From positions 128,679 to 192,678 of the forward strand of contig JBFXGK010000001.1 in assembly GCA_050178035.1 (NCBI GenBank): a stretch of 64,000 nt of DNA, in the 5' to 3' direction. The notes beneath the pieces were generated by a model, which worked only from the letters and a program-made list of their open reading frames with translations, did not search any database and was not told the DNA's origin. The position numbers and the translations under genes are program-made. This document shows positions 5,023 to 44,793 of this stretch, one piece after another (the stretch's first letter is position 1; each line of letters opens with the position of its first letter). Source of the stretch: Kiritimatiellia bacterium. GTDB taxonomy: Bacteria; Verrucomicrobiota; Kiritimatiellia; JAKQHR01.

Positions 5023-5023
5023 T

Positions 5024-5527
5024 TTACCAGTCTTCCGAAACAAGCTTGGCATTCCCGGTGTCGCCGAACGCATCCAGCAGTTCTTTCACCGACATTTTTG
5101 CGCCGGGCAATTTCAAGTCGGGGCGGATATCCGCGAGCGGCCGCACCACGAATTCGCGCCTCTGCCAGCGCGGATGAGGGATGGTGAGTTTTTCCTCGTT
5201 GATCACGAGACTGCCGGTGAAGATGATATCAATGTCAATCGTGCGCGGATCGTTCGCATGCTGTCCCCGGCGGCGCCACATGCTGCTTTCGATCTGCTGC
5301 ACGGCGGACAGCCATTCAAACGGGGTTTTCACGCTTTCGAATATCAGAACCGCATTCAGGAATACCATGTCCTTGTAACACTCGCGCACATCCACGGGAC
5401 GGGTTTCATAAAGTCTCGATTTCGCCGCCAGTTCAACATCATCCAGCGCCATGAGCGCCTCCATGGCGCGGTGCAGGGAATCCTGCCGGTTTCCGATGTT
5501 GCTTCCCAGACTGAATCCCGCTTCCAT
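5024..5527 (-). CDS. folK: 2-amino-4-hydroxy-6-hydroxymethyldihydropteridine diphosphokinase
   Basis: ORF 5024..5578; FSLGSNIG...RLYETRPV...IDIDII motifs; start set to ATG at 5527 (MEAGFSLGSN). Confidence 0.85.
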   Translation of the reverse strand: MEAGFSLGSNIGNRQDSLHRAMEALMALDDVELAAKSRLYETRPVDVRECYKDMVFLNAVLIFESVKTPFEWLSAVQQIESSMWRRRGQHANDPRTIDIDIIFTGSLVINEEKLTIPHPRWQRREFVVRPLADIRPDLKLPGAKMSVKELLDAFGDTGNAKLVSEDW

Positions 5528-7752: not shown

Positions 7753-7829
7753 TTCCAATGATTGGAAGTTTCTTTCTGAAAAGTTCCAACCATTGGAAAA
7801 TCTAAACACGATTCCTCCAATGATTGGAA
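7753..7829. promoter_or_regulatory. array of three 7-1-7 palindromes TTCCAAT-N-ATTGGAA, 31-bp centre spacing, 30-106 bp upstream of dapA start
   Basis: Read directly: TTCCAATGATTGGAA 7753-7767, TTCCAACCATTGGAA 7784-7798, cTCCAATGATTGGAA 7815-7829. Confidence 0.5.
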
Positions 7830-7919
7830 GTTTTTACGCATTATTTTCCAGCGGCTGGAACTTAAAGTCAGCCTCCGGCCGACACCCGGAACGCTGGTGT
7901 CCTTCCGCAGAAAATCCGC

Positions 7920-7974
7920 GAAAATGCAAAATTTCGCAAAAAATTGGCATTTTTGACCGTTTTTTGCCATTTTT
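7920..7974. repeat. phased A/T-tract array, left part (interrupted by IS insertion)
   Basis: gaaaatgcaaaatttcgcaaaaaattggcatttttgaccgttttttgccattttt; T/A runs recur every ~10-11 bp. Confidence 0.5.
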
Positions 7975-9290
7975 GCACATCTGTCCCAGTATTACCGCCA
8001 CAGCATCAACTGGTTAGAAGAGGGAGGTGTTTCTGGGGAGGCGTCTGCCTGCTGAAAAGCCTGTAAAATGGGCACTTTTTCAAATAGCGAGACACTCAAG
8101 ACCTGTAGAATAATGTAGAGTGAAGCTTCTATTTTCAGCCGCTTCTTTATGATGGCGACCAGCAGATATACTGTGATCGCAATCCAGATTTGAGATTTAA
8201 CCGCATTGGGCGAGGTTCCGTAGAATGACTTGATCCGCAGATTCTGCTTGATCCATTTAAAAAATATTTCGATGTTCCAGCGGCCCTTGAAAAGTTCTGC
8301 AACCGTGAGGGGAGGAAGTGAAAAATTATTGGTAAGGAAAACCAGCGTCCGGTTTTCCTGATCACGATACTTGATGCGCCGGAGATGTTCCGGAAAGTAT
8401 CGGGCTGTCTGTGTACCCGTGAGAATGATGGTCTGATCGCAAAGGATGCCGCAGTCTCTATCGGATGGATGGGAGTAGATACGTTGGAACTGAAGATTGG
8501 ATCGGGCCCGTGTAACAAAATAGGCTTTAAGCGAGTGTAGCAGATAAAGGCGTTTGAAATCCAAATAGGCGCGGTCCATTACATAGTAGGCTCCGGGAAC
8601 CGGCAGGATGTGATCCAATACACTGGCATCACCTCGTTTGCCATCTGTAATCAGTATATATTCCGGGATATTGCCGGATAAGTTGAGAAGGGTATGCATC
8701 TTCACGGCCCCTTTGGTCCGGCAGAAATGAGCCCAAGGAAACATCGAAAGACACAGGTCGATCACCGTTGAGTCCAATGCGTATACATCGGCACCCAAAT
8801 CCGGCATCAGCGGATCATCCGCGTATAATCGTCTGGCCTCAGGAATCAGGACGTGAGCAAAATCAGCGTAGATGCGCCAGTCCCGGGTTTCGTTCGCAAC
8901 AGAAAGATTGTTGCGCGAGACGCGACTGTGAATCCCCAAGTGGTACAGCTTGCCGCTCACAGCCCGCAAACAGGATTCGATGTCCCGCAAACTTTCACGG
9001 CAAGTCAACTGAGCAAAGGCCATCACACGGAACTGCTCAGAGCACCGGAACGTCTTCACCTTGTAATCGCCCTGATAGCGATTCACCAACGTCTGAAATC
9101 GCCACCAGGGCAACTGCTGCATCAGCTGAGAAAATACGGTTGTTCCAGAATACATAAGGTTGATCTCCTCCTCCTGATCAACCTTATAGGAAAAACCAAT
9201 TTCAAGTCGGAAAGGATGTAATATCAACACATCCTTATGATGTAACGTGCGTTATAACTATTTTATGCGAAAACGTTGGGACAGATGTGC
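7975..9290 (-). mobile_element. IS element, IS4-family-like, ~1.3 kb, with terminal inverted repeats and flanking direct repeat
   Basis: Perfect 14-bp inverted repeats gcacatctgtccca (7975-7988) and tgggacagatgtgc (9277-9290); flanking direct repeat cattttt at 7968-7974 and 9291-9297 (7-9 bp depending on exact IR end); one DDE transposase ORF inside. Confidence 0.8.
7992..9155 (-). CDS. DDE transposase (IS4 family-like)
   Basis: ORF 7992..9230; start set to ATG at 9155 (MYSGTTVFSQLMQQLP...). Candidate DDE residues in YALDSTVIDL, YVMDRAYLDF, WNIEIFFKWIKQNLRIK. Confidence 0.85.
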   Translation of the reverse strand: MYSGTTVFSQLMQQLPWWRFQTLVNRYQGDYKVKTFRCSEQFRVMAFAQLTCRESLRDIESCLRAVSGKLYHLGIHSRVSRNNLSVANETRDWRIYADFAHVLIPEARRLYADDPLMPDLGADVYALDSTVIDLCLSMFPWAHFCRTKGAVKMHTLLNLSGNIPEYILITDGKRGDASVLDHILPVPGAYYVMDRAYLDFKRLYLLHSLKAYFVTRARSNLQFQRIYSHPSDRDCGILCDQTIILTGTQTARYFPEHLRRIKYRDQENRTLVFLTNNFSLPPLTVAELFKGRWNIEIFFKWIKQNLRIKSFYGTSPNAVKSQIWIAITVYLLVAIIKKRLKIEASLYIILQVLSVSLFEKVPILQAFQQADASPETPPSSNQLMLWR

Positions 9291-11339: not shown

Positions 11340-12395
11340 TCAGGGGGCCGGGCCTGCAACATTTACGGACGAACAGCATTTCTTCTTCGCGGGTTTGCGG
11401 CCGGACCAGAGGGCGCAGCCCAGCACAGCGGCCAGCGCAGCCGTTGACACCAGCTTCATCCAGTACGGCATCATGGCGTGCGCCATGTGGTCCACATGCA
11501 CATGATCCGGGATGATCACGTTGTCCAGCAGCAGCCCGAAGGCCAGCGCCGAAACGGCGATGGTCGCCAGATAGATCAGAACGGACTTGTTGCCCATCAT
11601 GCTGCGGATGATGGCAATGGTGGCCGCATTGGTGGCGGGGCCGGTCATCAGGAACACAAACGCGGCACCCGGCGTGATGCCCTTCATCATGAACGCCGCC
11701 GCCACGGGCACGGAAGCTGTCGCGCAGACATAGACAGGAATGCCCATCAGCATCATCACCACCATGGACAGGAAGCCGGTGCCCAGATATTCCGCAAAGA
11801 AATCCTCGGGGATCAGCGCGGTGATCAGGGCCGCTACCGCGAGGCCGATCACCATGTCGCGCGCAATGTGCTTCGGGAGGGTGATAAAGCCGTGGCGAAG
11901 CCCGTCCAGAAACCGGTTTCTTTTGTGGTCATGCTTCGCGCAGCAGGGATCTTCGCAGGGCTCAGGCACCTGATCGGGTCCCTTCCCGGATGAAAAATCC
12001 ACCAGCCATCCGCCCAGGATTCCCGTCAGCAGGGCGGCAATGGGACGCACAATCGCAAACACCATTCCCAGCAGGCTGTAGGTTACAAAAATACTGTCCA
12101 CCCCGGTCTGCGGTGTGGAAATGAGGAAAGCGGTGGTGGCACCCCTGCTGGCGCCGTGCTTGCGGAGGGAGGCGGAGACGGGGATCACGCTGCAGCTGCA
12201 CAGCGGAAGCGGCACACCAAAAGCGGAGGCCTTGATCACCGGCCATATGCCGCGGCCGCCCAGATGGCGTTCCACCGTAGAGGCGGAGAGGAACATGGAA
12301 AGAATGCCGGCCACAAAGAATCCAAACAGGAGGTATGGGGACATCTGCACGAGCACGTCCCAGAACGAATTCAAGACAGCCCAAATAGTTTCCAC
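11340..12395 (-). CDS. permease, ArsP/DUF318-like (putative metal or metalloid transporter)
   Basis: 351 aa, polytopic; Cys motif PLPLCSCSVIP reminiscent of ArsP-type permeases. Confidence 0.65.
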   Translation of the reverse strand: METIWAVLNSFWDVLVQMSPYLLFGFFVAGILSMFLSASTVERHLGGRGIWPVIKASAFGVPLPLCSCSVIPVSASLRKHGASRGATTAFLISTPQTGVDSIFVTYSLLGMVFAIVRPIAALLTGILGGWLVDFSSGKGPDQVPEPCEDPCCAKHDHKRNRFLDGLRHGFITLPKHIARDMVIGLAVAALITALIPEDFFAEYLGTGFLSMVVMMLMGIPVYVCATASVPVAAAFMMKGITPGAAFVFLMTGPATNAATIAIIRSMMGNKSVLIYLATIAVSALAFGLLLDNVIIPDHVHVDHMAHAMMPYWMKLVSTAALAAVLGCALWSGRKPAKKKCCSSVNVAGPAP

Positions 12396-12445: not shown

Positions 12446-12925
12446 TCAGAGCACCTCTTTCAGGGCGGATTCGTAGACCGAACGGTGATTGAAACCGCTG
12501 ATCTGGCGGAGCTGGCGGCCGTTCTCATAAATGCGGACATCGGGAATGCCCACTATCCCGGCAGCCTGCGCTTCGGCTGCATGTTTGTCCACATTCACCC
12601 CGACAAAGAGCACGCGGCCGGCATAATCCCCCGCGAGCTTGTCCAGCACCGGCTTGAGGCTCTTGCAGGGTGGACACCAGTCGGCATAGTAATCAACAAG
12701 AACCGCGCGGTTGCTTTGGACAATCCCCGCGATGGTTTCGCCGGGGGCAGGCAGATAAATGTTTTGCGGGGTGCGGGTGCCGATTTCATGCCACGCAATC
12801 AAACCCGCGATCACAGCGCCGATGAAGGCGCCGTTCACGGGGGCCAGATGCAGTCTTTTCACCTTCAGGCACGCAATGAACCCAATCAGTGCCCCAAAGG
12901 CCGCCGTTAAAATCAGGATCAGCAT
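12446..12925 (-). CDS. membrane-anchored thioredoxin-family protein
   Basis: 159 aa; N-terminal TM helices, WCPPC active site. Confidence 0.8.
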   Translation of the reverse strand: MLILILTAAFGALIGFIACLKVKRLHLAPVNGAFIGAVIAGLIAWHEIGTRTPQNIYLPAPGETIAGIVQSNRAVLVDYYADWCPPCKSLKPVLDKLAGDYAGRVLFVGVNVDKHAAEAQAAGIVGIPDVRIYENGRQLRQISGFNHRSVYESALKEVL

Positions 12926-12928
12926 GGA

Positions 12929-13447
12929 TCAGTCCGCTGCGGGAGCGGCCGGCGGGACGAAGACGCGCGCGGCCAGCTCGCGGTCGAGCATGAACAGGCC
13001 CTGCTTGGAATCGCCGGAAATCCGGATCTGGTCAAGGATGCCTGTAGCGTTTTCTTCTTCCTCGATCTGCTCGGTGACAAACCACTGCACAAAGATTTCA
13101 GAGGCATAATCGCCGTCTTCGCGCGAAAGCTTCATCAGGTTGTTGATGCGGGAGGTGACATATTTCTCATGCTCCAGCGTCAGTTCAAAAAGCTCCTTCA
13201 TGGAGGTTCCCTTTAATTCAGGCTTTTCGATCGCTTCCATGACCGGCAGCGCGCCCTGGCTGCAGAGATATTTGAAGAACTTGTCGGCATGAGTCATTTC
13301 TTCCAGAACCTGGACATGGAACCAGTTTGCGCAGCCTTTATAACCCTGGGTTTCCGCCTGGGCGGACATGGCATAATACAAGTAGGCCGAATAGATTTCC
13401 TTGTTGATCTGCTCGTTGATGGCTTTTGCCAGTTTCTTCGATATCAT
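12929..13447 (-). CDS. ferritin (non-haem)
   Basis: 172 aa; ferritin-like four-helix ferroxidase signature (EIYSAYLYYAMS, LEEMTHADKF). Confidence 0.85.
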   Translation of the reverse strand: MISKKLAKAINEQINKEIYSAYLYYAMSAQAETQGYKGCANWFHVQVLEEMTHADKFFKYLCSQGALPVMEAIEKPELKGTSMKELFELTLEHEKYVTSRINNLMKLSREDGDYASEIFVQWFVTEQIEEEENATGILDQIRISGDSKQGLFMLDRELAARVFVPPAAPAAD

Positions 13448-13473
13448 CTGATCTGCTCCTTATCTAAGATGAA

Positions 13474-13497
13474 GCGGGGGCCGTCATCGGCCCCCGC
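13474..13497 (-). terminator. GC-rich hairpin between dfx and ferritin gene (possible terminator/attenuator)
   Basis: gcgggggccg-tcat-cggcccccgc perfect 10-bp stem; no strong U-tract, so weak as an intrinsic terminator. Confidence 0.35.
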
Positions 13498-13518
13498 GTT
13501 CAATTGCTTGATTATGGT

Positions 13519-13896
13519 TCAGGACTTCCAGAGGCCGTGCACGTTGCAATACTCGCGTGCCGATACATTCTTAGCGCTGATGCCTTCAAAAACGGCAACA
13601 GGCTGGTCGCCCGGCTTCAGGAATTTCCGTCCCACTTTGTCATCAAACTGAATTTCGATCCATTCAATATAGTGTTCCGGGAGCATGGGATGAAGCGTGC
13701 TTCCCACGGTGACCTTGTAGCCCGTGGCGGTTTTCTCGATCAAGGGAACATGCTTCTCCTTGGTCTTGTCCGCCGTCTGTTCCACCATGAGCTTCATGGG
13801 TTCGCCGCAGCAAACCAGTTCCCCGTCGCCGGCATGCAGGACGCTGACAATATTACTGCAGGCCGCACATTTATAGATTTCCAGTCGCTTTGTCAT
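13519..13896 (-). CDS. dfx: desulfoferrodoxin (2Fe superoxide reductase)
   Basis: 125 aa; N-terminal desulforedoxin Cys cluster ([10 protein letters not shown]...CCGEPM) plus SOR domain. Confidence 0.9.
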
Positions 13897-13912
13897 TGTT
13901 CGCTCCTTGTTG

Positions 13913-14485
13913 TTACCAGTTTTCCGCCAACAGTTCGAAATGGGCCTGGGGATGGGCGCAGGCCGCGCAGATATCCGGGGCTTCTTTTCCGGTATGAATA
14001 TATCCGCAGTTCATGCAGCGCCAGACAACCGGTTTGTCTTTTTTGAAAACAGTCTGGGCGTCCACGTTGGCCTTGAGCCCGAGGAAGCGCTTCTCGTGCT
14101 GCTTCTCGGCGACGGCAATGGCTTCAAACACCTTCGCAATTTCGGGGAAACCCTCTTTGCGGGCGGTGTCGGCGTACGAGGGATACATCTCGGTCCACTC
14201 GTAGTGCTCGCCGGCTGCGCCGTGCTCAAGGTTCTCGGAGGTCGAGGCGATTGTTCCGGCCGGGAAGGACGCGGTGATCTCCACCTCGCCGCCCTTGAGA
14301 AACTTGTAAAGACGCTTTGCGTGCTCGCTTTCCTGATCAGCCGTCTCCTCGAAAACCTCGGAGATCTGGCGGAATCCCTCTTTTTTTGCCTTGCCCGCAT
14401 AAAAGGTATAACGGTTCCTTGCCTGCGATTCACCTGCGAATGCGGTCAGCAGATTTTTCTCCGTCTGGCTTCCTTTCAGTTCCAT
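13913..14485 (-). CDS. rbr: rubrerythrin
   Basis: 190 aa; diiron domain ([23 protein letters not shown]) plus C-terminal rubredoxin-like CxxC...CxxC. Confidence 0.95.
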
Positions 14486-14494
14486 TTTTCTCTC

Positions 14495-15643
14495 CTATGA
14501 CAATTTCTGTCCAAGCTGTTTTTCGTATTTTCTGAAATCCGCTGCGGACCCGGCCATTTGGATACCGACGAGTACGCCATCCTTCACCAGAAGGCCGCGG
14601 AAAATTTCAGCACTGTGCTCCAATATTACCGTATGAATCCCATTTGCGCAAGCCGGACCGATTGAATTTACGGCGAAGCCCGCGTGAGAGTAGAATATGG
14701 GCGAATCTGAAGGCTGGTGAGCCGACAGGGCCATTCCCTGCGCCGCCGAAAGCGCGTTGACTGCGGCCACCTTGCCCTGCAGCACGGCCTCCAGCGCGCA
14801 AAAGATATCTACATGGTCCCATTCAGCAATATCTCCGCAGGCAAAGACCGAAGGTGCGGATGCCTGCATCTTCATATCCACCCGTATCCCCTTCCCGCAA
14901 ACGAGCCCCGAGGATTTCGGAAGCGTCACATCGCGGCGCGCGCCCACCGCCAGCACCACCAGGTCCGCTGTCATCACGTCGCCGGACTCCATTATGAGTT
15001 GGAAATCCCCGGCATTCTGCCTGGCAATGGACGACACCGTGGTCCCCAGAAGGATTTTAACGCCCATCGACCGGAGTAAATTCTCGACGACTTCAGACGC
15101 ATCCGTGCACAAGTTGGACAGCATCAAATGCTCCAGGCGCTCCACCAGCACCACGTCCAGACCGGCAAGTGCTCCGCGATGCGCCACTTCCACCCCCAGA
15201 ATTCCGCCCCCGATCACCACCAACTTCCTGCCGGGAGCCAGCGTCCCGCGGATGTCTTCGGCATGCTCTATGTGCCATAGCGGATGAATATGTTTCCGCG
15301 CGGAATGCGCGAACGGCGGTATGGCTGGACCGGATCCGATGGAAAATATAATAGCATCATACGACTCTGTTCCCCGTCCGGATGTCAGGGTTCGCGCAGC
15401 TGAATCACAGGCCGTGACCGGAGTGTCCAGCCGCAAATCGATTTTGCGCGACGCATACCACGCCAAGTCATGCATCGTGATGTCCTCCAGCGAGGACTGC
15501 GCAAAAGCGTACCCGACCAGCTTGGGGCGGTAATACGGCAAGACCTTTTCCGCCGAATACAAATGGACTTCCGCTCCCTGCGCGGCGGCCGTTTCGGCCG
15601 CCTTCACGCCCGCATGGCCCGCGCCAATGATTCCCAGCTTCAC
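14495..15643 (-). CDS. NAD(P)H:rubredoxin oxidoreductase-like FAD-dependent pyridine nucleotide-disulfide oxidoreductase
   Basis: ORF 14495..15709; two Rossmann motifs (LGIIGAGHAG, LVVIGGGILGVE). Start set to GTG at 15643 (VKLGIIGAG), overlapping the PtsI-like stop (GTGA). Confidence 0.75.
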   Translation of the reverse strand: MKLGIIGAGHAGVKAAETAAAQGAEVHLYSAEKVLPYYRPKLVGYAFAQSSLEDITMHDLAWYASRKIDLRLDTPVTACDSAARTLTSGRGTESYDAIIFSIGSGPAIPPFAHSARKHIHPLWHIEHAEDIRGTLAPGRKLVVIGGGILGVEVAHRGALAGLDVVLVERLEHLMLSNLCTDASEVVENLLRSMGVKILLGTTVSSIARQNAGDFQLIMESGDVMTADLVVLAVGARRDVTLPKSSGLVCGKGIRVDMKMQASAPSVFACGDIAEWDHVDIFCALEAVLQGKVAAVNALSAAQGMALSAHQPSDSPIFYSHAGFAVNSIGPACANGIHTVILEHSAEIFRGLLVKDGVLVGIQMAGSAADFRKYEKQLGQKLS

Positions 15644-17253
15644 GAAACCGCCGCCTTTCGGACCGCGGGTATTGCGCGCGGGCTGCAGCTCACGGATTTT
15701 ATGCCGCATTCCATCAGTTTCCTGACCATCACCGGATCACTCGCCAGTTCGCCGCATACGGACAGCGACCGCCGGTGTTTTTCGGCGGCCGCTGCGATTC
15801 CGCGCAGCACCTGCCAGAACACCGGATGGTCAGAGGTGTATTCGTCAGTCACCAGCTCATTGCCGCGGTCCACCGCAAAAAGATATTGAGTAAGATCATT
15901 CGTGCCGATACTGGCAAATTGAGCCTCGGCCAGAATGGCATCCGCCTGAAGGGCGGCCGACGGGACTTCAAACATCACCCCGAATTCAATGCTGCCGGTT
16001 TTAATGTCCTCCACCATTTCTTTGAACATGTCGCGCAAGCGCCGGAATTGCGCAACATCAACGATCATGGGGAACATCACACGAACAGGGCCCTTCAGCG
16101 ATGCGCGTGCAATGGCACGCGCCTGATCACGAAACAGGTTCGGATGGCGGATCAGCAAACGGCTGCCGCGCAGGCCCAATGCGGGGTTTTCCTCCTTCGG
16201 AATCCTCATTGCCGGCAACGGCTTGTCTCCTCCGGCATCGAGCATCCGGAATGTGGTCACACGGCCTTCCATGGCCTCGACCACAGGCGCATAACGCGTA
16301 TACTGCGCTTCTTCAGACAGCAATTCGCCTGCGGATATGAATTCGAATTCCGTCCGGTAAAGTCCAATGCCCTCTGCCTTCATTTCGCGGGCTTCGGACA
16401 CTTCCCGGCCCAGTGTGATGTTGGCCATCACCTGAAGTTGCGGGACGGTGTCAACGGCTCCGTCACGGCGCGCCCTTCCCGCCTCGCAAGAGCAGGCGGC
16501 AATTGTTCTTTCATCCGGAGAAATGATCACTTCACCGGTGTCTCCATTCACAATCAGCTCTGTGCCGCAAGCAACGGTGCTGTGAATGTTCTTGATGCCG
16601 CTGACCGCGGGAATGCCCAGCGCGCGCGCAAGGATCGCAGCATGCGAGTTGACACCGCCATGTTCGGTGACAAATGCCAGAACCTCCCCGGTGTTCAAAC
16701 TGACGGTAAGGCTGGGCGTCAGCTCTTCGGCAATGACAATGCGGTTTTTGCCCCGGCGGCAGCGGCCGGCGCAACTGAACCCCGGTGCGGTATTGGACAG
16801 GTTGTCCAGCAGGCGGCGGCGAATCTCACCGATGTCAGACGCCCGCTCGCGAATGTACTCGTTGTCGAGAGCGCCCAGTTTCGTCTCATAGGCATCGAGC
16901 ACCGTATGAATCGCATTTTCAGCGTTGCGCAGGGCGGAACGGATGTGTTCGCGCAGCTGCTTAAGGATCATTGGATCCTCGACAATCATTTTCTGCGCAA
17001 CAAAAATGCCGGCCTCGGCCTGGCCCATCCGGTTTTCCACATGCGCGCGGATATTTTCAAGCTGCTGGGCTGTGGCTTCCACGGCATCTTCCATACGCTT
17101 GACTTCATCGTTGAGCTGTGCGGGTTCAATGGCGTAGTCGGGAACCTCCTGATGACGGTGATCATCAAAAAGGCAAACGCGGCCAAGGGCCACTCCTTTG
17201 CTCAGAGAAAGGCCTTGAACGCGTTTTTCAGCAGTTTTGTTTCCAGTGGCCAA
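15640..17253 (-). CDS. ptsI: phosphoenolpyruvate--protein phosphotransferase (PTS Enzyme I-like)
   Basis: 537 aa; EI motifs: catalytic His region GGVNSHAAILARALGIPAV, IGTNDLTQYLFAVDR, CGELASDP; N-terminal domain aligns with EI. Confidence 0.85.
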   Translation of the reverse strand: MATGNKTAEKRVQGLSLSKGVALGRVCLFDDHRHQEVPDYAIEPAQLNDEVKRMEDAVEATAQQLENIRAHVENRMGQAEAGIFVAQKMIVEDPMILKQLREHIRSALRNAENAIHTVLDAYETKLGALDNEYIRERASDIGEIRRRLLDNLSNTAPGFSCAGRCRRGKNRIVIAEELTPSLTVSLNTGEVLAFVTEHGGVNSHAAILARALGIPAVSGIKNIHSTVACGTELIVNGDTGEVIISPDERTIAACSCEAGRARRDGAVDTVPQLQVMANITLGREVSEAREMKAEGIGLYRTEFEFISAGELLSEEAQYTRYAPVVEAMEGRVTTFRMLDAGGDKPLPAMRIPKEENPALGLRGSRLLIRHPNLFRDQARAIARASLKGPVRVMFPMIVDVAQFRRLRDMFKEMVEDIKTGSIEFGVMFEVPSAALQADAILAEAQFASIGTNDLTQYLFAVDRGNELVTDEYTSDHPVFWQVLRGIAAAAEKHRRSLSVCGELASDPVMVRKLMECGIKSVSCSPRAIPAVRKAAVS

Positions 17254-17264
17254 AACGGCCTCAT

Positions 17265-17426
17265 CTATGCGACAGGCTCAAAGTCGCTTTTGGGAACACC
17301 GCATTCAGGACAAACCCAGCTGTCGGGAATGTCGGCAAAAGCGGTTCCGGGAGCAATCCCGTTGTCCGGATCTCCGACGGCGGGGTCATAAACGTATCCG
17401 CAGACGGTGCAAACATATTTCTGCAT
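17265..17426 (-). CDS. rubredoxin
   Basis: Not in ORF track (53 aa). Own translation: [53 protein letters not shown]; canonical CxxCG...WxCPxCG rubredoxin. Confidence 0.85.
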
Positions 17427-17431
17427 GTTGT

Positions 17432-18640
17432 TCACTCCTGTTTGATCTGTTTACAGATTTCCAATGCCTGATCTGCAAGCATACTACCGGCTTCCCGGCA
17501 AAGCGCAAGATCATCTGCCCGCGGCACATATTGGACCTGGATGGGCTCGCGGAGAATCCGGACTTTCATATCCTCAAGATATTCATTCACCTCCTGTGCC
17601 CCGCCCTTCGCCCAGCCATACGATCCGAATGCGAATCCCGCCTTGCCGGCGGGCTTCAAGCCCTTGAGATACGTCAGCACGGCTGCCGCCTGCGGCATCA
17701 GCGTTCCGTTCAGCGTCGGCGACCCGAAAGCAAATGTTGCCGCATCCAGCATCTCCGTGGCCAGCGTGGTGGTGTTGCTTGCCCGGATGTAGAACAGCTT
17801 GGCGTCAACTCCGGGCTTTGCGGCGCCTTCCAGGATGGCGTGCGCCATTTTCTCGGTGCTTTTCCACATGGTGTCATAAATGACCAGCACCTTGGGCTTC
17901 GGTTTGCAGACCATCCATTCGCTGTAGGCCTGCATGATTTCCTTTACATGCCTGCGCCAAATCACCCCGTGGCTGGGGGCAATCATTTCGACGTCCAGCC
18001 CACCCACCCCGCTCAGCACGCGAGCGATGGGTTTGCTGTAGAGCATCAGGATGTTTGCATAGTATGTCTTTGCCTCGAACATGACCGTGTTCAGCGGTTC
18101 CTCATCGTCAAAGCGTCCGGATGAGGCATAATGCTGGCCGAAGCCATCCATCGAGAAAAGAATCTTTTCCTCCGGCACATAGGTGGCCATGGATTCCGGC
18201 CAGTGCGCCATCGGCGTTTCCACAAAGACCAGCGTCCGCTTGCCCAGGGAGAGTTTGTCTCCGTCTTTAACAATCTTGAACTTCCAGCCGGTGATGTCGT
18301 GATGAAGCGCAAGAGCCTTCTGGCATTTGTCATCACAGACAATCTCCGCCTGCGGACAGGCGGCCACAACTTCCGGAAGAGAACCGGCATGATCCAGCTC
18401 GGCGTGATTGCAGACAATGTAATCAATCTTCCGAAGATCAATCAGCCTGCGGACATTGTCCAGCAGCTGTTTGCCAAAACCGGCCTTGACGGTGTCAATC
18501 AGCGCGTTCTTGCCGTCACGCACCAGATAGGCGTTATAGGTGGATCCGCGACGGGTTTCGTATCCATGAAAATCGCGGACATTCCAGTCCACGTATCCCA
18601 CCCAGTCAATGTTGTTCCGCAGGCTCGTGTTCATATGCAA
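17432..18640 (-). CDS. flavodiiron protein (FprA / rubredoxin:oxygen or NO oxidoreductase)
   Basis: 402 aa; metallo-beta-lactamase-like diiron domain ([14 protein letters not shown]) plus C-terminal flavodoxin domain. Confidence 0.9.
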
Positions 18641-18703
18641 TCTCCAGAATCAGCCCATATTAGACGCAACCGGCCGGGAGGTAAAGGTTCTTCGAACCGC
18701 GCA

Positions 18704-19045
18704 TCACGTCGCCGGCTGGCGAATCATGATCAGCAGCATTTTGAACTGCTTTTCCGCCCAGAGAGAATGCGGAACATTTGCCGGCATGATCACCAATTGC
18801 CCGGCCCGGGCAGTCAGCGGATTTCCGCCGATGTTGATAACCACCTCGCCGTCCAGAATCTGAACAGCCGCATCATACGGTGATGTGTGCTCGCTGAGCC
18901 CCTGCCCCGCATCAAAGGCAAACAGGGTCAATGAGCCCACGTCTTTGTTCATCAGAGTCTTGCTGACGACCGAACCGGAGGCATAGGCGACCTCTTGAAC
19001 AAGTTCAAGGGGCCGCCCTTTGTAGTCTTCGCTGCCCATGATCAC
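18704..19045 (-). CDS. cupin domain protein
   Basis: 113 aa; cupin motifs (GLSEHTSPYDAAVQILDGEV ... PANVPHSL). Confidence 0.65.
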   Translation of the reverse strand: MIMGSEDYKGRPLELVQEVAYASGSVVSKTLMNKDVGSLTLFAFDAGQGLSEHTSPYDAAVQILDGEVVINIGGNPLTARAGQLVIMPANVPHSLWAEKQFKMLLIMIRQPAT

Positions 19046-19410
19046 TCCGCGGGCGCGACAGGCGCTTCCGCCTCAGGGGCCTTTGAAACGCAGCCCGCTT
19101 TTTCCATCATCGGGCATCCGGCCTTGCCTTCAGCCTTCATGCTTTTGCAGCAGGCCATGCAACCAGGCGATCCCGCATGCTTTCCGCACTTCGGGCATAC
19201 CGCGGCGCCTTCTTTGCAGCACAGTTCCGAACCCGCAACCTGGCCGCATTTCCCGCACAGCGCGGGCGCAGCTTCCTCCGATGTCGAAGAGGCCTTCATT
19301 TCTGCTGCCGGTTCAACCGCCGCAGCGGCCTTCGCCGCGCAGCAGGGCCCGGCAAAGGAAACCGATGAAACGGCCAGCACCATTAAAATAACCATTATTC
19401 CGACTTTCAT
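19042..19410 (-). CDS. secreted cysteine-rich small protein (hypothetical, putative metal-binding)
   Basis: ORF 19042..19545; start set to ATG at 19410 (MKVGIMVILMVLAVSSVSFA signal peptide). Mature part has 14 Cys in CC and CxxC arrangements. Confidence 0.5.
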   Translation of the reverse strand: MKVGIMVILMVLAVSSVSFAGPCCAAKAAAAVEPAAEMKASSTSEEAAPALCGKCGQVAGSELCCKEGAAVCPKCGKHAGSPGCMACCKSMKAEGKAGCPMMEKAGCVSKAPEAEAPVAPAE

Positions 19411-19466
19411 AACACTCACCTTTCTTCCCTTGTGGGAATTGAAGTATACGCACCAGGGGCAATAAA

Positions 19467-20249
19467 TCAAATGGCCTTGATCGAAAGAATGTCGCCGGTG
19501 AGACTCATGACCGCTTCTTCCACCACCAAATCCTCCCGCCCGCATCTTTCAGCGGCAGCGCGAACCATCATGGTCAGTCCACCGCAGCAGGGAACCTGCA
19601 TTCTGACGACAATGACTTTGGGGATGGACGGCTCAGCAAATATATCGGCCATTTTTTCCACATAGCCGTCTGTACGATCCAGCTTTGGGCAGGCTACAAC
19701 CAAGCCCCTGCCCCGCAGAAAACGCCAGTGCACGTCAGCCGAGGCGATTGGTCCGCAGGTGCTCATCACCACCAGCTCGCGGTTCTTGAAGAACGGCGCA
19801 CCCGCCTGCACCAGATGCAGCTGCACAGGCCACTGCTGAAGCTCCGACGGAATCGCCGTGGGCATCTGCGCGTGGGTCGCCACCGCCGGCTTTGCGGCGG
19901 GAGCATCCGGCACACGCATGCGTGTGCCGGGACATCCCCCGCCCGACGGGGCCAGGCCATGCTTTTTCCCCGCCTCGTCGAACTTCACAACCGCCGCCGC
20001 GCCCTGAGTCTCCGCCACATGCATGCGCGTGGCATTGAAGTCAAAACCATCCGCCTCGCGCTCTTCAATGGTCAGCGCGCCGGTCCGGCATTCACCGATG
20101 CAGTCTCCGAAACCATCGCAGAACTGCTCCTTGACCAGTTTTGCCTTGCCGTTGACGATCTTCAGCGCGCCCTCTGCGCAGGATGTGACGCATTCGCCGC
20201 ATCCGTTGCAGAGGTCTTCATTGATCCTGATGATCTTGCGCTTTGCCAT
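19467..20249 (-). CDS. 4Fe-4S dicluster domain-containing protein
   Basis: 260 aa; N-terminal CNGCGECVTSCAEGAL and CDGFGDCIGECRTGAL ferredoxin motifs; further Cys pairs C-terminally; directly downstream of hcp. Confidence 0.7.
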   Translation of the reverse strand: MAKRKIIRINEDLCNGCGECVTSCAEGALKIVNGKAKLVKEQFCDGFGDCIGECRTGALTIEEREADGFDFNATRMHVAETQGAAAVVKFDEAGKKHGLAPSGGGCPGTRMRVPDAPAAKPAVATHAQMPTAIPSELQQWPVQLHLVQAGAPFFKNRELVVMSTCGPIASADVHWRFLRGRGLVVACPKLDRTDGYVEKMADIFAEPSIPKVIVVRMQVPCCGGLTMMVRAAAERCGREDLVVEEAVMSLTGDILSIKAI

Positions 20250-20250
20250 A

Positions 20251-21900
20251 TCACTTCCCGGCCATCATGGCCGCGACATCGGCCTGCACTTCGCCAGTCG
20301 GTTTGATGTCGAAGTTCTCAACCAGCACTTTGGCGACAGCGGGCGAAAGGAACGCCGGAAGCGTCGGCCCCAGGCGGATGCCTTTCACCCCCAGATGCAG
20401 CAGCGCCAGCAGCACCGCAACGGCCTTCTGCTCGTACCAGGCGATGTCGAACGAAAGCGGAAGGTCATTGATGGAGGCCAGACCGAACGCCTCCTTCAGC
20501 TTCAGGGCGATGACCGCCAGCGAGTAGCTGTCGTTGCACTGCCCAGCATCCAGCACGCGCGGAATGCCGCCGATGTCGCCGAGGTTCAGCTTGTTGTAAC
20601 GGTACTTCGCGCAGCCCGCGGTCAGGATGATCGTGTCCTTTGGCAGAGCCTCGGCTACTTCTGTGAAGTAGCTGCGGTTTTTGTGACGACCATCGCATCC
20701 GGCCATCACCACAAAGCGCTTGATCGCACCGGACTTGACAGCCTCCACCACCTTGCCGGCCACGGCCATGACCTGATTGTGTGCGAAACCACCGACGATT
20801 TCGCCGTTTTCAATCTCCTGCGGCGGCGGACACTTCTTCGCCTGCTCGATGATCGCGGAGAAATCCTTCTGCTTGCCCGGTTTGCGGTCGGGGATGTGCT
20901 TTGCGCCCGGCCAGCCGGCCATGCCCGTGGTGTAAAAACGGTTGAGATAAGAATCCTTCACCGGAATGATGCAGTTGGTCGTCAGCAGGATCGGCCCGTT
21001 GAACGAGGCGAATTCCTTGTCCTGAAGCCACCAGCTCCCGCCGTAGTTGCCGGCCAGGTGCTTGTATTTCTTGAAGGCCGGATAGTAATGGCACGGAAGC
21101 ATTTCTCCGTGGGTATAGACATCCACCCCCGTGCCCTCTGTCTGCTGCAGCAGTTCGTCCATGTCCTTCAGGTCGTGGCCCGAAATCAGAATGCCCGGAT
21201 TTTTGCGGACGCCGGTGGCAACTTTTGTGATTTCCGGATTGCCATAGGTCTCGGTATTGGCTTTGTCGAGCAGCGCCATGGTCGTTACGGCAATTTCGCC
21301 CGCCTTCAGGACCATGCCCACCATTTGATCAACACTGAGTTTCTGAGTGGTCGAGATCAGACCATCAACCACAAACCGGTAGATGGCGTCATCCTCATAG
21401 CCGAGAACAAGCGCGTGATCAGCGTAGGCCGCGATGCCCTTCAGGCCAATGATCAGAAGCTGCTGGAGCGACCGCACGTCCTCGTTCGGCTCGGACGGGA
21501 TGCCGACCAGAAGCGCCTTGACCTGCAGATCCTCGCCCTTCTTCGGAGCCCATGTCGCCGCGTCGGGCAGACTTTTCGCCCAGGCGGCGTCCTTCTTCTC
21601 GCACTGCTTGCGAATGGCGTCGCGCTGCGCAACAGCCTCATGGATCAGGCGGCTGATGACTGCATCGTCAAAGTTGGCATTGGTGATTGTGGAAAAAAGA
21701 CCGCGGATAATGGTCTGTCCGACTGCGCGGTCATACAGGCCCAGTTCATCGGCTTTCTTGCCGGCAATGGCCAGTCCTTTCAGAGAATGGATCAGAAGAT
21801 CCATCAGATTTGCCGTGGGCTCCTGTTTTCCGCAAACGCCCCGGACGGTGCATCCCTGATTCTTCGCGGTCTCCTGACACTGGAAGCAGAACATACTCAT
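20251..21900 (-). CDS. hcp: hybrid cluster protein / hydroxylamine reductase
   Basis: 549 aa; N-terminal [11 protein letters not shown]...CTVRGVCGK Cys cluster and full-length Hcp architecture. Confidence 0.95.
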
Positions 21901-22370
21901 GATTTTCCCTTTCCTTTTTTTGGTTGTTTATAAATTTCAGCCAGCGTTGTTTTCTCAAAGAAAGCGTTCAGGCGGTTTTGAAGAATGCAGACGGACCCCT
22001 TCATCGGGCATTTCCCGCTGTAGGGACAGGGCTGCCCCTTGCGGTTGCAGACATTCATATAGACCGGCCCCTGCACGGCCTCGACAATCCGTGCGAGGCT
22101 GATCTTCCGGGTCGGAAGGGCCAGCAGATATCCCCCGCGCTTTCCGCGCACGGTTTTCACGACTCCGGCTTTTGCGAGCGTCTGCATGATCTTGCGGAGG
22201 GCGGGCAGCGGCACTTTGCAGTCCTTCGCCAGTTCAAGCGTGTCGGTGCGGGTGCACCGCCGGTCCAGCACATGCAGTGCCCGGAGCGCGTAATCGGTCT
22301 CTCTTCTGAGTATTTCCATAAGCCATCCTTTAAATGCGACCAATTTAGTCCTATTTAACTCCCGCGTCAA
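21897..22370 (-). CDS. Rrf2-family transcriptional regulator (NsrR/IscR-like)
   Basis: 157 aa; [10 protein letters not shown]...GGYLLALP wHTH signature; C-terminal Cys residues; 4-nt overlap with hcp start. Confidence 0.85.
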
Positions 22371-22389
22371 CTAATTATATGAAATTATT

Positions 22390-22761
22390 TCAGGAAGTCT
22401 TTTTCGGCCAGGCCTTGAGGACGGCCATCACCTCTCGGACCCAGGTGCAAACGCACTTGACGGGACATCGGCCGTCCTGACCCAGATGGGAGCAGTAACC
22501 CGGACAGTCCGGTCCCCGGTAGGCACACGTCTGCCACACAGGTCCGTCGTAAAGGTTCCGGAAGTCTTCCACCGCCAGGGCAAGCGTGGTCGTGCATTCG
22601 GTCACATGGTTGAAAAGGAAATATCCCAACCGTTCCTCTTCAAAAAAAGGCTGATAGCCAAGAAATTCGACCGATGGATCTGACAGGAATGAATCCCGGT
22701 CCTTCCATGCCGTGCCGCAGGTCGTGCAGCGCTTGTAGATATGTACGCTCTCTTCTTTCAC
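22390..22761 (-). CDS. cysteine-rich hypothetical protein
   Basis: 123 aa; CTTCG, CAYRGPDCPGYCSH, CPVKCVC motifs; first gene of the hcp operon; no family recognised. Confidence 0.45.
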   Translation of the reverse strand: MKEESVHIYKRCTTCGTAWKDRDSFLSDPSVEFLGYQPFFEEERLGYFLFNHVTECTTTLALAVEDFRNLYDGPVWQTCAYRGPDCPGYCSHLGQDGRCPVKCVCTWVREVMAVLKAWPKKTS

Positions 22762-22961: not shown

Positions 22962-24107
22962 TCAGAAGCTGATGTTGCCGCCGCCATCCGTGGCGGTTCC
23001 TGCGATGTTTGTGCTCAAAACGCTGAAGCGGTTGTCAGCATACACGTTGCCGGCTGCTGAAAATACGATGCCGGTGTCAGATCCGGTGATCAGGTTGTTC
23101 TCAATGCAGTTGCGCGCGTTGTTCACATGAATGCCGTTGATCCAATTCCACGACACATTGTTGCCTGCGACATGGCAGGAAAGACTCGCGGAAAGCCCCC
23201 CGCAATCCGGGTCTCTCAGGGAGTTGTTGTTTCCAATGGTGTTGTTGTGCACCGAGCACCCGGTAGAGGCATAAATTCCCCATTCCGCATTGTGCATGCA
23301 AACGTTTTCCCCGATACGGTTGTAATCACCTCCAGAAATTCCATTTTTTGCGTTTTCAGACGCCACATTGCCCTGAATCAAACTCGAATCCCCTGCAACA
23401 ATGCCGGAACTCCCGTTTCCGCATGATGCGTTTCCGGAAACAACGCACCCCTCACCGGCATAGATGCCCCAGTATCCGTTCCCGTACACAATGCACTCTT
23501 CAACCTGCCCGCAGTTCCCTATCTCGATCCCGATTGAGCTGTTGGAAACAACTGTCACACCGTCCAGGATGCAGCCCTCAGTAGGAAAATAGATCCCGAT
23601 GCCTCCGTTGTTTATGATGCGCAGACCAGTCACCCGGTGAGCCCGAGGTTGAGATGAAAGCATAGACTCATAGGCATAAACACCGTTTGCCCCGAACTGG
23701 GCAACCGTTCCGTTGCGTACTTCCACGTTGCGCACGTTTCCGATGTAAATGCCATAGTGTGACACATCCAGCGGATTTCCCGTCAGCGTGAATCCGTTCA
23801 GATCAAGGGCAACATGATCGGCTGAAACAGAGATCCCTCCTTGTGTCACTGTCATGTTGTCTGTCAAATAATAGGATCCGCTGTTGGTGATTGCATAATG
23901 ATAGCCTGAAGAACCCGGCGTGTTGATTGCGCTCAGCGCGGTCCGCGGCTCGGACAGCAGGGTTTGCTGGTGAATTTGATACAGAGTCTTCATTGACGGG
24001 GCGGGCGCGCCCGCCGGCATCAGCAGGCCCTGGGCCAATATGCACTGGGCCCACAGAAGTGCCGACGCAAAAATCATCAGATGTTTCAAGCCAGCCTTCA
24101 TAAGCAT
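22962..24107 (-). CDS. secreted right-handed parallel beta-helix repeat protein
   Basis: ORF 22962..24299; start set to ATG at 24107 (MLMKAGLKHLMIFASALLWAQC signal peptide); Gly/Asn-rich repeats typical of beta-helix (pectate-lyase-like) folds. The N-terminal extension in the track is translation of the T-tract array. Confidence 0.7.
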   Translation of the reverse strand: MLMKAGLKHLMIFASALLWAQCILAQGLLMPAGAPAPSMKTLYQIHQQTLLSEPRTALSAINTPGSSGYHYAITNSGSYYLTDNMTVTQGGISVSADHVALDLNGFTLTGNPLDVSHYGIYIGNVRNVEVRNGTVAQFGANGVYAYESMLSSQPRAHRVTGLRIINNGGIGIYFPTEGCILDGVTVVSNSSIGIEIGNCGQVEECIVYGNGYWGIYAGEGCVVSGNASCGNGSSGIVAGDSSLIQGNVASENAKNGISGGDYNRIGENVCMHNAEWGIYASTGCSVHNNTIGNNNSLRDPDCGGLSASLSCHVAGNNVSWNWINGIHVNNARNCIENNLITGSDTGIVFSAAGNVYADNRFSVLSTNIAGTATDGGGNISF

Positions 24108-24224
24108 CCTCCCTCTTCGGCCTTTGCAGGCTTTTGTTGGAAGAAATGCTATCAAATATTCCGCAGGAAACAATCGAAGAAACGAACCGGTTTGCGCGCT
24201 TCTCGATCTTTTGCGGCGAATTAT

Positions 24225-24315
24225 GAAAAAATTGACGAAATTCGGCCAATTTTGAGCATTTTTAGCCGTTTTTGGCGTGTTTTCGCTAATTTTGGCCATT
24301 TCGATGCTTTTTCAG
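24225..24315. repeat. phased A/T-tract array
   Basis: gaaaaaattgacgaaattcggccaattttgagcatttttagccgtttttggcgtgttttcgctaattttggccatttcgatgctttttcag; T runs every ~10 bp. Confidence 0.5.
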
Positions 24316-37707: not shown

Positions 37708-37800
37708 GCGGTTTTAACCTGTTTTTGGCCATTTTTGAGCATTATTAGCCGTTTTTTGGCCTTTTTGAGCACTTTTTGGGCATTTTTAAGAGAATTTTCA
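37708..37800. repeat. phased T-tract array (best example)
   Basis: gcggttttaacctgtttttggccatttttgagcattattagccgttttttggcctttttgagcactttttgggcatttttaagagaattttca; T runs start at about 37712, 37722, 37732, 37752, 37762, 37773, 37784, 37795. Confidence 0.55.
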
Positions 37801-39235: not shown

Positions 39236-39309
39236 AGCTTCTTCTCCTGTTCCAACGGGGGCGCAGTGTAGAACATGGAGCCCGCGCGTGCAATCCGAAG
39301 GTTAAACTT

Positions 39310-44747: not shown

Positions 44748-44793
44748 TTCCAATCATTGGAAGTATTATAACGAATAGTTCCAGGGATTGGAA
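44748..44793. promoter_or_regulatory. two 7-1-7 palindromes, 31-bp centre spacing, 63-108 bp upstream of iorA
   Basis: TTCCAATCATTGGAA 44748-44762; TTCCAGGGATTGGAA 44779-44793 (degenerate left half). Confidence 0.5.

Follow-up and report, generated by a model that had tools for sequence, protein, structure and literature searches.

Do the stress-defence genes that stand side by side in an uncultured Kiritimatiellia bacterium form one operon, a mobile island or a cluster of separate operons, and what is an Enzyme I (EI) of the phosphotransferase system (PTS), with its dependence on phosphoenolpyruvate (PEP) and pyruvate, doing among them? The question is raised by 14 consecutive minus-strand genes at positions 12446-22761 of the stretch of DNA analysed here, 64,000 nucleotides of contig JBFXGK010000001.1 (hereafter the window). 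A preliminary description had read this block as a compact island against oxidative and nitrosative stress, with a complete electron chain and a shared upstream palindrome array, and had listed a PtsI-like enzyme in it without comment; that enzyme turned out to be the one unusual component of the block. Our reading, to which we would give a probability of roughly 0.7, is that the block was inherited vertically and groups several operons for oxidative and nitrosative stress, being neither a single operon nor a mobile island, and that its EI represents a distinct four-cysteine subfamily (Cys-EI) that recurs in such operons.

Open reading frames (ORFs) were present at every coordinate that had been claimed, and Pfam and NCBIfam profile searches returned matching families for the gene identities that had been proposed (Table 1). 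An independent gene call on the identical contig (L001) gave the same genes with some starts refined, namely those of the Rrf2 regulator (22319), the secreted Cys-rich protein (19410), the cupin (19039), the flavodiiron protein (FDP, 18634), the rubredoxin (17426) and the flavoprotein resembling NAD(P)H:rubredoxin oxidoreductases (NRORs; 15643). A 15th co-oriented gene, encoding a Cu/Zn-efflux-type permease, extends the conserved block beyond its former limits, to 11 kb. All parts of a chain leading from NAD(P)H via an NROR-like reductase and rubredoxin to FDP, desulfoferrodoxin (Dfx) and rubrerythrin (Rbr) are indeed encoded in one co-oriented block, and rrf2 does lie directly upstream of hcp, which it overlaps. 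Such a detoxification chain, compactly encoded as it is here, is ordinary in kind and belongs to known anaerobe biology.

The preliminary description had proposed synteny in relatives as a check on chance adjacency, and a suitable relative could be found by scanning one genome per species with the EI protein. The locus obtained (L002) comes from a different species, a metagenome-assembled genome labelled as Verrucomicrobiota, and shares the gene order of the window all the way from DUF1302 and YgaP, which lie upstream of the block, to the permease at its downstream end, with proteins that are 67-93% identical. Only the FDP and the upstream NosD-like gene are missing: rd directly follows the cupin gene there, after a gap of 95 nt (L002 9718-9811), at the place where the window has fdp (17432-18634). 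Since it is absent from an otherwise syntenic locus, FDP is a variable member of the block. Two metagenome contigs from the window's own species (L041 and L117) carry a matching block at ~87-100% identity. The block does not differ in G+C content (0.555-0.579) from the rest of the window, and Rfam and tRNA scans of the window gave no match. A horizontally acquired island was therefore rejected, on the grounds of this G+C content, the lack of a tRNA and the synteny of the flanking genes in L002; conserved order together with normal composition argue for a real inherited cluster, rather than chance adjacency or a transferred island. A looser version of the cluster is found in a member of the Lentisphaerota (L007), with thioredoxins, fdp-EI-rbr-dfx, rd, a second Rbr-like gene, DsbD, glucose-6-phosphate dehydrogenase (G6PD), 6-phosphogluconolactonase (6PGL), a Cys-rich protein, a fusion of rubredoxin and superoxide reductase (Rd-SOR), and hcp. 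This cluster (12900-19955), in which the part fused to SOR is rubredoxin-like, also holds a GDT1-rubrerythrin fusion, and upstream of it lies the gene of a sigma-54 activator with an N-terminal low-molecular-weight (LMW)-phosphatase/ArsC-like domain (3561-5300).

The picture of a single transcription unit is not supported, as the block contains a predicted internal sigma-70-like promoter with a Rrf2-type operator before rrf2-hcp, a second promoter-like site before fdp or rd, and a hairpin between dfx and ftn. Because gene spacing and these promoter, operator and hairpin signals mark boundaries, the block is best read as about five predicted transcription units. The first would consist of the orphan Cys-rich gene, 70 nt from rrf2. 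The second, rrf2-hcp-ferredoxin (a 4-nt overlap followed by a 1-nt gap), would have its own promoter under the single Rrf2 operator. After 56 nt follows what may be a third unit, with the genes of the secreted Cys-rich protein and the cupin 2 nt apart, and 69 nt further on the fourth, the six-gene core fdp-rd-EI-nror-rbr-dfx. The core genes appear to be translationally coupled, with 5 nt between fdp and rd, 11 nt between rd and EI, a 4-nt overlap (GTGA) of EI with the reductase gene, then 9 nt to rbr and 16 nt to dfx, and the unit would be ended by the conserved hairpin in the 71 nt before ftn. The last unit would be ftn-trx (3 nt apart), perhaps together with the permease gene 50 nt downstream.

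The promoter-like site before rrf2 overlaps a putative Rrf2-type operator, the 21-bp 7-7-7 palindrome ATAGGACTAAATTGGTCGCAT at 22334-22354. It is the sole match in the window at <=1 mismatch, and no further Rrf2 operator was found in the block at <=3 mismatches. Palindromes of the same 7-7-7 build stand before rrf2 in L002 (ATAGTACTATTTTAGTACTAT) as well as in five Omnitrophota-type loci (ATGATAC-N7-GTATCAT). Most simply, ATAGGACTAAATTGGTCGCAT would be the operator by which the Rrf2 protein regulates its own gene. The promoter-like sequence upstream of fdp reads TTTACC-17-TAATAT, and its counterpart in L002, before rd, TTGCAC-16-TACTAT. The hairpin between dfx and ftn has an equivalent in L002 at the same place, with different stem and loop letters, and is a probable terminator or processing site ending the core unit.

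The EI of the core unit is a full three-domain PTS enzyme, comprising the HPr-binding and phospho-histidine parts of EIN as well as EIC, and its catalytic His204 (GGVNSH) and Cys500 (VCGELA) align with H189 and C502 of Escherichia coli EI. Homologues at 51-57% identity occur in Kiritimatiellia, Omnitrophota, Planctomycetota and Verrucomicrobia. Four cysteines, C27, C161, C165 and C229, are invariant in an alignment of the 120 best homologues, and all four are carried by 15 of 15 locus copies from Omnitrophota and the Planctomycetes-Verrucomicrobia-Chlamydiae (PVC) group. They correspond to L17, I146, S150 and N214 in E. coli EI, and to H/Y, G/S, T/V and H/Q in eight gammaproteobacterial EIs. 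C161 and C165 fall within an insertion, P-[SG]-[LF]-x-C-x(3-5)-C-x-[RKH]-G, which a wider survey of the 150 best representatives of 50%-identity clusters detected in 22 of them; each of the 21 full-length proteins among these also has C27. All 22 belong to the top-scoring group (340-490 bits); canonical EIs, which score ~300-330 bits, show an alignment gap in place of the insertion. In an AlphaFold2 model (mean predicted local distance difference test, pLDDT, 82) C27 lies in strand 21-30, C161 and C165 in the loop between the HPr-binding helical subdomain and strand 171-175, and C229 just before strand 232-236, positions that would put all four cysteines in or at the hinge of the phospho-histidine subdomain (alpha to alpha/beta). 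Cys-EI shares with PTS Enzyme I and with EI-Ntr (PtsP) the three domains and the catalytic His and Cys, but differs from them in four invariant extra cysteines, including the C-x3-5-C hinge insertion, and has no GAF domain, which PtsP does have. Two fusions of Cys-EI were also seen: one (P0050, L141 2449-4572) has an N-terminal ArsC/LMW-phosphatase-type domain (CVGNSCRS ... C-x6-C) and is encoded in an rbr ... ArsP_1-fdp-rd cluster, and the other (P0064) has a C-terminal domain resembling pterin-4a-carbinolamine dehydratase.

Genes for rubredoxin, FDP, rubrerythrin, ferritin, Rrf2-Hcp or Msr/Suf were found near Cys-EI in 14 of 18 loci, the window and L002 included, in at least six different arrangements. 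Besides the core order of the window (Kiritimatiellia), these include rd-EI-ftn in Kiritimatiellae (L017), EI-rbr in Kiritimatiellae and Victivallales (L004 and L005), fdp-EI in Lentisphaerota and Kiritimatiellia (L007 and L015), and msrBA divergent from EI with sufBD/sufC downstream in Kiritimatiellia (L003). An Omnitrophota-type operon (L018, labelled Omnitrophota, and L021-L024) reads rrf2-EI-hcp-radical SAM-nadA-ilvD-ftn/fdp, with a 26-nt overlap at EI, and a further locus (L141) reads pntB-rbr-[ArsC-like domain fused to EI]-DUF255 thioredoxin-ArsP_1-fdp-rd. The Omnitrophota-type operon groups enzymes with Fe-S centres labile to O2 or NO with detoxification genes and Cys-EI; it has an optional hemerythrin gene after EI and is preceded by TTGACA with ATGATAC-N7-GTATCAT, and often by a glutamate dehydrogenase (GDH) gene. 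In contrast, none of eight gammaproteobacterial EI loci (32-34% identity) contains these stress genes, while all eight have HPr immediately upstream and PtsN ~2.5 kb upstream. Fisher's test of Cys-EI against gammaproteobacterial loci gives p = 3e-4, a value that overstates the evidence because the Cys-EI loci are phylogenetically related; the diversity of arrangements is the stronger argument for linkage.

Embedded in stress operons, Cys-EI is never beside its usual partners: neither HPr nor PtsN was found in the window or in any Cys-EI locus. A 'GLHARA' match at 39117-39368 was rejected as an HPr, being an out-of-frame shadow of the gene for elongation factor P (EF-P). Partners may nevertheless be available, unlinked, on contigs that share the dispersed repeat described below. 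One of these (L056 7488-7775, minus strand) encodes a stand-alone HPr (PF00381, 1.7e-19), and another (L039 2728-3486, minus strand) a 252-residue fusion of HTH_17 and PTS_EIIA_2, presumably a DNA-binding protein controlled by PTS phosphorylation. Since both are found on contigs sharing the repeat, a regulatory EI-HPr-EIIA relay is plausible, and in serving such a relay Cys-EI may resemble EI-Ntr.

The PTS is among the best-studied bacterial signalling systems, and no redox-sensing Enzyme I is known to us. Most likely, Cys-EI would link the PEP/pyruvate-dependent PTS phosphorelay to redox stress, and the hinge of its phospho-histidine domain could hold a metal or thiol switch made up of the four cysteines. 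Spelled out in full, the proposal is that Cys-EI is an undescribed subfamily whose cysteines, at E. coli positions 17, 146, 150 and 214, either hold a metal or an Fe-S centre or make up a dithiol switch, and so render the first PTS step sensitive to O2, reactive oxygen species (ROS) or NO; that it is a dedicated part of the Rrf2-Hcp and rubredoxin-based operons by which Kiritimatiellia, Lentisphaerota, Omnitrophota and relatives defend themselves; and that it couples PEP/pyruvate status and PTS regulation, through HPr and the helix-turn-helix (HTH)-EIIA protein, to oxidative and nitrosative stress. We put this forward tentatively, as a possibility well short of even odds. A full-text literature search for ptsI with rubrerythrin or rubredoxin, for ptsI with Fe-S and nitrosative stress, and for hcp with Rrf2 and EI returned nothing relevant, and as far as we found, neither the subfamily nor its linkage, across phyla, to Rrf2/Hcp and rubredoxin operons has been described.

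With respect to the second unit, the preliminary description had recognised a nitrosative-stress pair. A Rrf2-family protein with three cysteines (C-x6-C-x5-C, as read from the translation) does stand beside hcp, but orthology with NsrR fails the NCBIfam cutoff (NF008240, 39 bits against 182); only the superfamily model TIGR00738 is passed and no equivalog is reached. The Hcp itself shows the full-length prismane fold and the N-terminal motif C-x2-C-x8-C-x5-C expected of the family. The protein encoded next to it, with an N-terminal 2x[4Fe-4S] ferredoxin part and an AF_0155-type domain, is 90% identical in L002 and would be a probable electron donor to Hcp. As in NsrR- or IscR-type control of hcp, a three-cysteine Rrf2 protein is encoded upstream of hcp and overlapping it, and a putative palindromic operator overlaps the promoter. 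Unlike in those systems, the regulator is an orthologue of neither NsrR nor IscR by NCBIfam cutoffs, the operator is a 21-bp 7-7-7 palindrome (AT-R-N-K-AC...GT-M-N-Y-AT), and the gene after hcp encodes the ferredoxin/AF_0155 protein, not Hcr. Judging from its three cysteines, the operator over its own promoter and hcp downstream, the Rrf2 protein may work like NsrR. It is plausible that the unit is a module for NO or hydroxylamine, and it would probably respond to NO or to Fe-S damage.

The proteins of the core, on the other hand, have their known counterpart in the three-component NAD(P)H-NROR-Rd-FDP chain of anaerobes, which is established (PMC6033852), and in Clostridium acetobutylicum, Desulfovibrio, Pyrococcus and Moorella rubredoxin also feeds desulfoferrodoxin and rubrerythrin (PMC6033852). 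By analogy with that chain, NAD(P)H would reduce the flavoprotein and this the rubredoxin, from which electrons would pass to FDP (for O2 or NO), to desulfoferrodoxin (for superoxide) and to rubrerythrin (for H2O2), while ferritin, thioredoxin and the permease may keep down the damage caused by iron and metals. Each of the five protein types occurs here with its catalytic motifs, the reductase as an NROR-like protein, and their genes are co-oriented in one tightly coupled unit. The FDP, a class-A protein with metallo-beta-lactamase-like (ODP) and flavodoxin domains, the diiron motif H-A-E-L-D-H and no extra domains, is closest to Moorella FprA (1YCF, 1.5e-113 over the full length) and D. gigas ROO (1E5D, 1.9e-93). 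The rubredoxin has its two CxxC pairs (CTVCGY...CPECG); the rubrerythrin is of the classical type, with two ExxH motifs and a C-terminal CxxC...CxxC rubredoxin-like domain; and the desulfoferrodoxin has the centre I (CxxC...CC) and centre II (EKHVP ... CNVHG) of 2Fe-SORs. What differs from the chain as known is that an Enzyme I gene stands between rd and the reductase gene and that no PerR-type regulator is nearby. A comparable compact ROS operon is rbr-perR-rbo-(rubredoxin-glutamate dehydrogenase) of Clostridioides difficile (bioRxiv 10.1101/2024.09.17.613384), in which, as here, an enzyme of central metabolism stands beside Rbr and Dfx. There, however, the enzyme is a GDH with a rubredoxin domain and the operon has its own PerR, whereas here the metabolic or signalling enzyme is a Cys-rich Enzyme I and the sole regulator is the Rrf2 protein of a separate unit.

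The palindrome array that bounds the block upstream had been taken as common control and proved to be a dispersed repeat that precedes only the first, uncharacterised gene. It lies 31 nt after the stop of the NosD-like gene and 94 nt before the Cys-rich ORF, and its units have the consensus AAAA-C-TTCCAAT-S-ATTGGAA-C-TTTT followed by six unconserved bases. The window has two further arrays, of which one (7753-7829) precedes dapA and the other (44748-44793) follows a ThiS-like gene by 4 nt and precedes iorA; in all, 11 matches of the TTCCAATNATTGGAA type were counted in the window where 0.33 would be expected. Weaker matches occur at 4413-4427 and 45754-45792, but the two at the latter place lie within a coding region, encode PVIG/PIIG and were discarded as probably coincidental. 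An exact-pattern scan of metagenome contigs yielded 137 arrays in 114 stretches; 77 of the 137 have three copies, and 202 of 211 spacings are exactly 31 bp. As measured with a crude ORF caller, the arrays lie at a median of 23 nt from a stop codon (mode 4-5 nt) and are enriched between convergent genes and depleted between divergent ones (20:9, against a background of 76:101). As RNA, the three-unit array folds into one long hairpin ending in a U-run (-37.4 kcal/mol, z = -4.0), units 1 and 3 pairing with each other while unit 2 forms a fold of its own. L002 keeps the array before the Cys-rich gene although its upstream neighbour differs.

Thus, having many intergenic palindromic copies with a bias to gene 3' ends, the array is a lineage-specific repeat of the repetitive extragenic palindromic (REP) kind that probably acts at transcript 3' ends. 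It is neither stress-specific nor a 'shared' operator, because it is dispersed genome-wide, mostly after stop codons, and precedes the first gene only. Like REP and bacterial interspersed mosaic elements (BIMEs) it combines a short palindromic unit, many intergenic copies, a preference for 3' ends and convergent gaps, and a strong potential to form RNA hairpins; unlike them it forms a strict direct array, usually of three units spaced exactly 31 bp apart, in which the 25-bp palindrome is conserved and the 6-nt spacers vary. A Fur/PerR-type 7-1-7 box was also considered and rejected, given the dispersal at gene 3' ends and the lack of a Fur or PerR homologue in the window, and so was a sigma-54 or extracytoplasmic function (ECF) promoter, as the spacing to any -12/-10 element does not fit.

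For several of these elements one may consider other explanations. The array could comprise binding sites of a transcription factor that controls the island, the other arrays belonging to the same regulon: its 25-bp palindrome is strongly conserved next to variable spacers, its period of 31 bp is close to three helical turns, it stays upstream of the Cys-rich gene in L002 despite the different neighbour, and in the window dapA, the Cys-rich gene and iorA each start 37-94 nt downstream of an array. We nonetheless regard this as distinctly improbable, as the arrays stand beside unrelated genes across the metagenome stretches, close to stop codons and in convergent gaps, fold as one RNA hairpin with a terminal U-run, and in the block precede only one gene, while the units downstream carry signals of their own. 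Less easily dismissed, if still unlikely, is that the flavoprotein encoded after EI is an NADH oxidase or a reductase of the ferredoxin or CoA-disulfide type, with rubredoxin being reduced by another donor, e.g. pyruvate:ferredoxin oxidoreductase. The name NROR given to it earlier holds at the level of the family (Pyr_redox_2): it is an FAD/NAD(P)H flavoprotein with two dinucleotide-binding folds, of the NirB/ferredoxin-reductase group, as an NROR should be. It reaches no NCBIfam equivalog model, though (NorW 126 bits against a cutoff of 392), and its PDB matches at ~1e-25 include the ferredoxin-type relatives TodA, putidaredoxin reductase and monodehydroascorbate reductase, its best ones, as well as the characterised NRORs 3KLJ (C. 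acetobutylicum) and 1XHC (P. furiosus); the scores of these two and of the rubredoxin reductase 2V3A are comparable, at 1e-22 to 1e-25. NRORs share little besides nucleotide-binding motifs (PMC6033852), and the gene is translationally coupled within fdp-rd-EI-X-rbr-dfx and kept there in L002. Since no equivalog is reached and ferredoxin reductases match equally well, it is this gene context that suggests a NAD(P)H:rubredoxin oxidoreductase, and the enzyme is the weakest link of the chain.

The more general objection would be that the block is a housekeeping neighbourhood without common purpose, its genes separately regulated and its EI the genome's ordinary PTS enzyme, located there by chance. 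Several promoter and terminator signals do split the block, the Rrf2 operator occurs once only, TIGR01417 scores the protein as a normal EI with intact catalytic residues, and HPr and an EIIA-domain protein are encoded elsewhere on related contigs. We consider it very unlikely all the same: the order is conserved in L002 at the identities given above, EI abuts rd and overlaps the reductase gene, and EI copies at 50-55% identity across phyla keep stress neighbours though the arrangement differs (rd-EI-ftn, fdp-EI-rbr, rrf2-EI-hcp, msrBA/EI/suf, rbr-EI-...-fdp-rd), which is not what drift of gene order predicts, while the control EI loci carry HPr and PtsN instead. As to the redox switch in Cys-EI, the main alternative is that the four cysteines form a structural Zn site, or have no joint role, and sense nothing, the linkage to stress genes having a metabolic reason, e.g. 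pyruvate supply or control of carbon flux; this, too, is possible but falls clearly below an even chance. Cys4 sites of anaerobe proteins are often structural zinc sites, and the fourth cysteine is variable in distant members; a metabolic linkage has its parallels in the rbr operon of C. difficile with its glutamate dehydrogenase (bioRxiv 10.1101/2024.09.17.613384), in the GDH gene beside the Omnitrophota-type operon, and in G6PD and 6PGL in L007. The cysteines, on the other side, fall in the phospho-histidine domain at its alpha to alpha/beta hinge and in elements next to it, a possible place for a switch, and in one member EI is joined to an ArsC/LMW-phosphatase-type domain that has redox-active Cys motifs; neither point is decisive.

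There is also evidence that weighs against our reading of an inherited cluster of stress operons with a dedicated Cys-EI. The operon boundaries, the promoters and the role of the hairpin are all predictions from the sequence, the core unit yielded neither a regulator nor an operator of its own, and the window neither a PerR nor a Fur homologue. The Rrf2 protein is not an NsrR orthologue by NCBIfam; the reductase matches no model specific for rubredoxin reductases, its best PDB relatives being ferredoxin reductases; and the FDP is missing from L002. As for Cys-EI, four of its 18 loci have no stress neighbours (L006, L019 and L020 among them; in L019 EI follows a Cus-type efflux operon of the resistance-nodulation-division (RND) kind), and many of the 18 are mutually related, so that the counts are not independent. 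C229 is present in only 13 of the 22 insertion-bearing distant representatives, the pLDDT of the CxxxC loop is only ~63-65, and the contigs encoding HPr and the EIIA protein are tied to the lineage solely by the shared repeat.

The remaining genes of the block are less telling. The 123-residue Cys-rich protein has the invariant residues C12, C15, H52, C56, C86-P-G-Y-C90, C99 and C103 and probably binds metal; no relative was found in Pfam, NCBIfam or PDB folds, and its neighbours in Desulfobacterales (META, DDAH) show no stress link. The secreted Cys-rich protein has a counterpart of similar character at the same place in L002 and a 42% match in L007, and could be a periplasmic metal binder. 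The permease is 83% identical at the equivalent place in L002, and an ArsP_1 gene also occurs in the stress cluster of L141. Between YgaP and the stress block lies the NosD-like gene (22962-24299, minus strand), missing there in L002, whose product is a right-handed beta-helix protein with a signal-peptide-like start. Phased A-tract runs were seen on the minus strand at 7904-7976, 24230-24300, 37720-37790 and 51690-51785, upstream of several minus-strand genes. They consist of 6-9 GCCAAAAAnGG-like units with a period of ~10-11 bp, resemble curved or UP-element-like promoter DNA, and inflate the apparent N-termini of the longest ORFs, e.g. that of the NosD-like ORF.

Table 1. Genes and signals of the stress block in order of transcription, with positions in the window; cutoffs are those of the NCBIfam models.
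Feature	Positions	Strand	Evidence or remark
Palindrome array, three 31-bp units, each with TTCCAATNATTGGAA	22855-22931	-	marks upstream edge of block
Cys-rich protein, orphan family, 123 aa	22390-22761	-	no family match
Promoter-like site TTGACG-17-TAAATT, overlapping putative Rrf2-type operator	22334-22370	-	in 70-nt gap before rrf2
Rrf2-family regulator, 140 aa	21897-22319	-	PF02082 1.8e-27; TIGR00738 89.5 bits (cutoff 73.3)
Hcp (hydroxylamine reductase), class-I type	20251-21900	-	PF03063 8.9e-171; NF003658 831 bits (cutoff 367)
N-terminal 2x[4Fe-4S] ferredoxin with AF_0155-type C-terminal domain, 260 aa	19467-20249	-	Fer4 families; PF27217
Secreted low-complexity Cys-rich protein, signal-peptide-like, 122 aa	19042-19410	-	ORF; no family match
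Cupin_2 protein, 111 aa	18704-19039	-	PF07883 3e-10; 89% identical in L002
Class-A flavodiiron protein, 400 aa, first gene of six-gene core	17432-18634	-	PF19583 and PF00258
Rubredoxin, 53 aa	17265-17426	-	PF00301 6.1e-26; NF045768 109 bits (cutoff 90)
Enzyme I, four-cysteine subfamily	15640-17253	-	PF05524, PF00391, PF02896; TIGR01417 424 bits (cutoff 341.7)
Pyr_redox_2 flavoprotein (NROR-like), 382 aa	14495-15643	-	PF07992 7.4e-51, PF00070; two GxGxxG motifs
Rubrerythrin, classical	13913-14485	-	NF045767 293 bits (cutoff 200); PF02915 and PF21349
Desulfoferrodoxin (2Fe superoxide reductase)	13519-13896	-	TIGR00320 189 bits (cutoff 147); PF06397 and PF01880
G+C-rich hairpin, 10 G-C pairs, in 71-nt dfx-ftn spacer	13474-13497	-	RNA fold -28.7 kcal/mol, z = -4.7
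Non-haem ferritin, 172 aa	12929-13447	-	PF00210 1.1e-38; NF007638 129 bits (under cutoff 178)
Thioredoxin-fold protein, WCPPC, two N-terminal hydrophobic segments	12446-12925	-	PF00085 4.9e-22; TIGR01068 80.5 bits (under cutoff 96.8)
ArsP_1 / SO_0444-family Cu/Zn efflux-type permease	11340-12395	-	NF033936 367 bits (cutoff 300)

The complete detoxification chain mainly helps to explain oxygen tolerance in uncultured Kiritimatiellia of digester and sludge communities. The putative lineage-wide Rrf2 operator and the regular dispersed repeat of 3 x 31 bp should be useful for annotating these genomes. It is the Cys-EI subfamily and its linkage that raise the interest of an otherwise ordinary locus from low to moderate, since a conserved four-cysteine EI within Rrf2/Hcp and rubredoxin operons of several poorly studied phyla offers a testable link between PEP/pyruvate status and stress defence.

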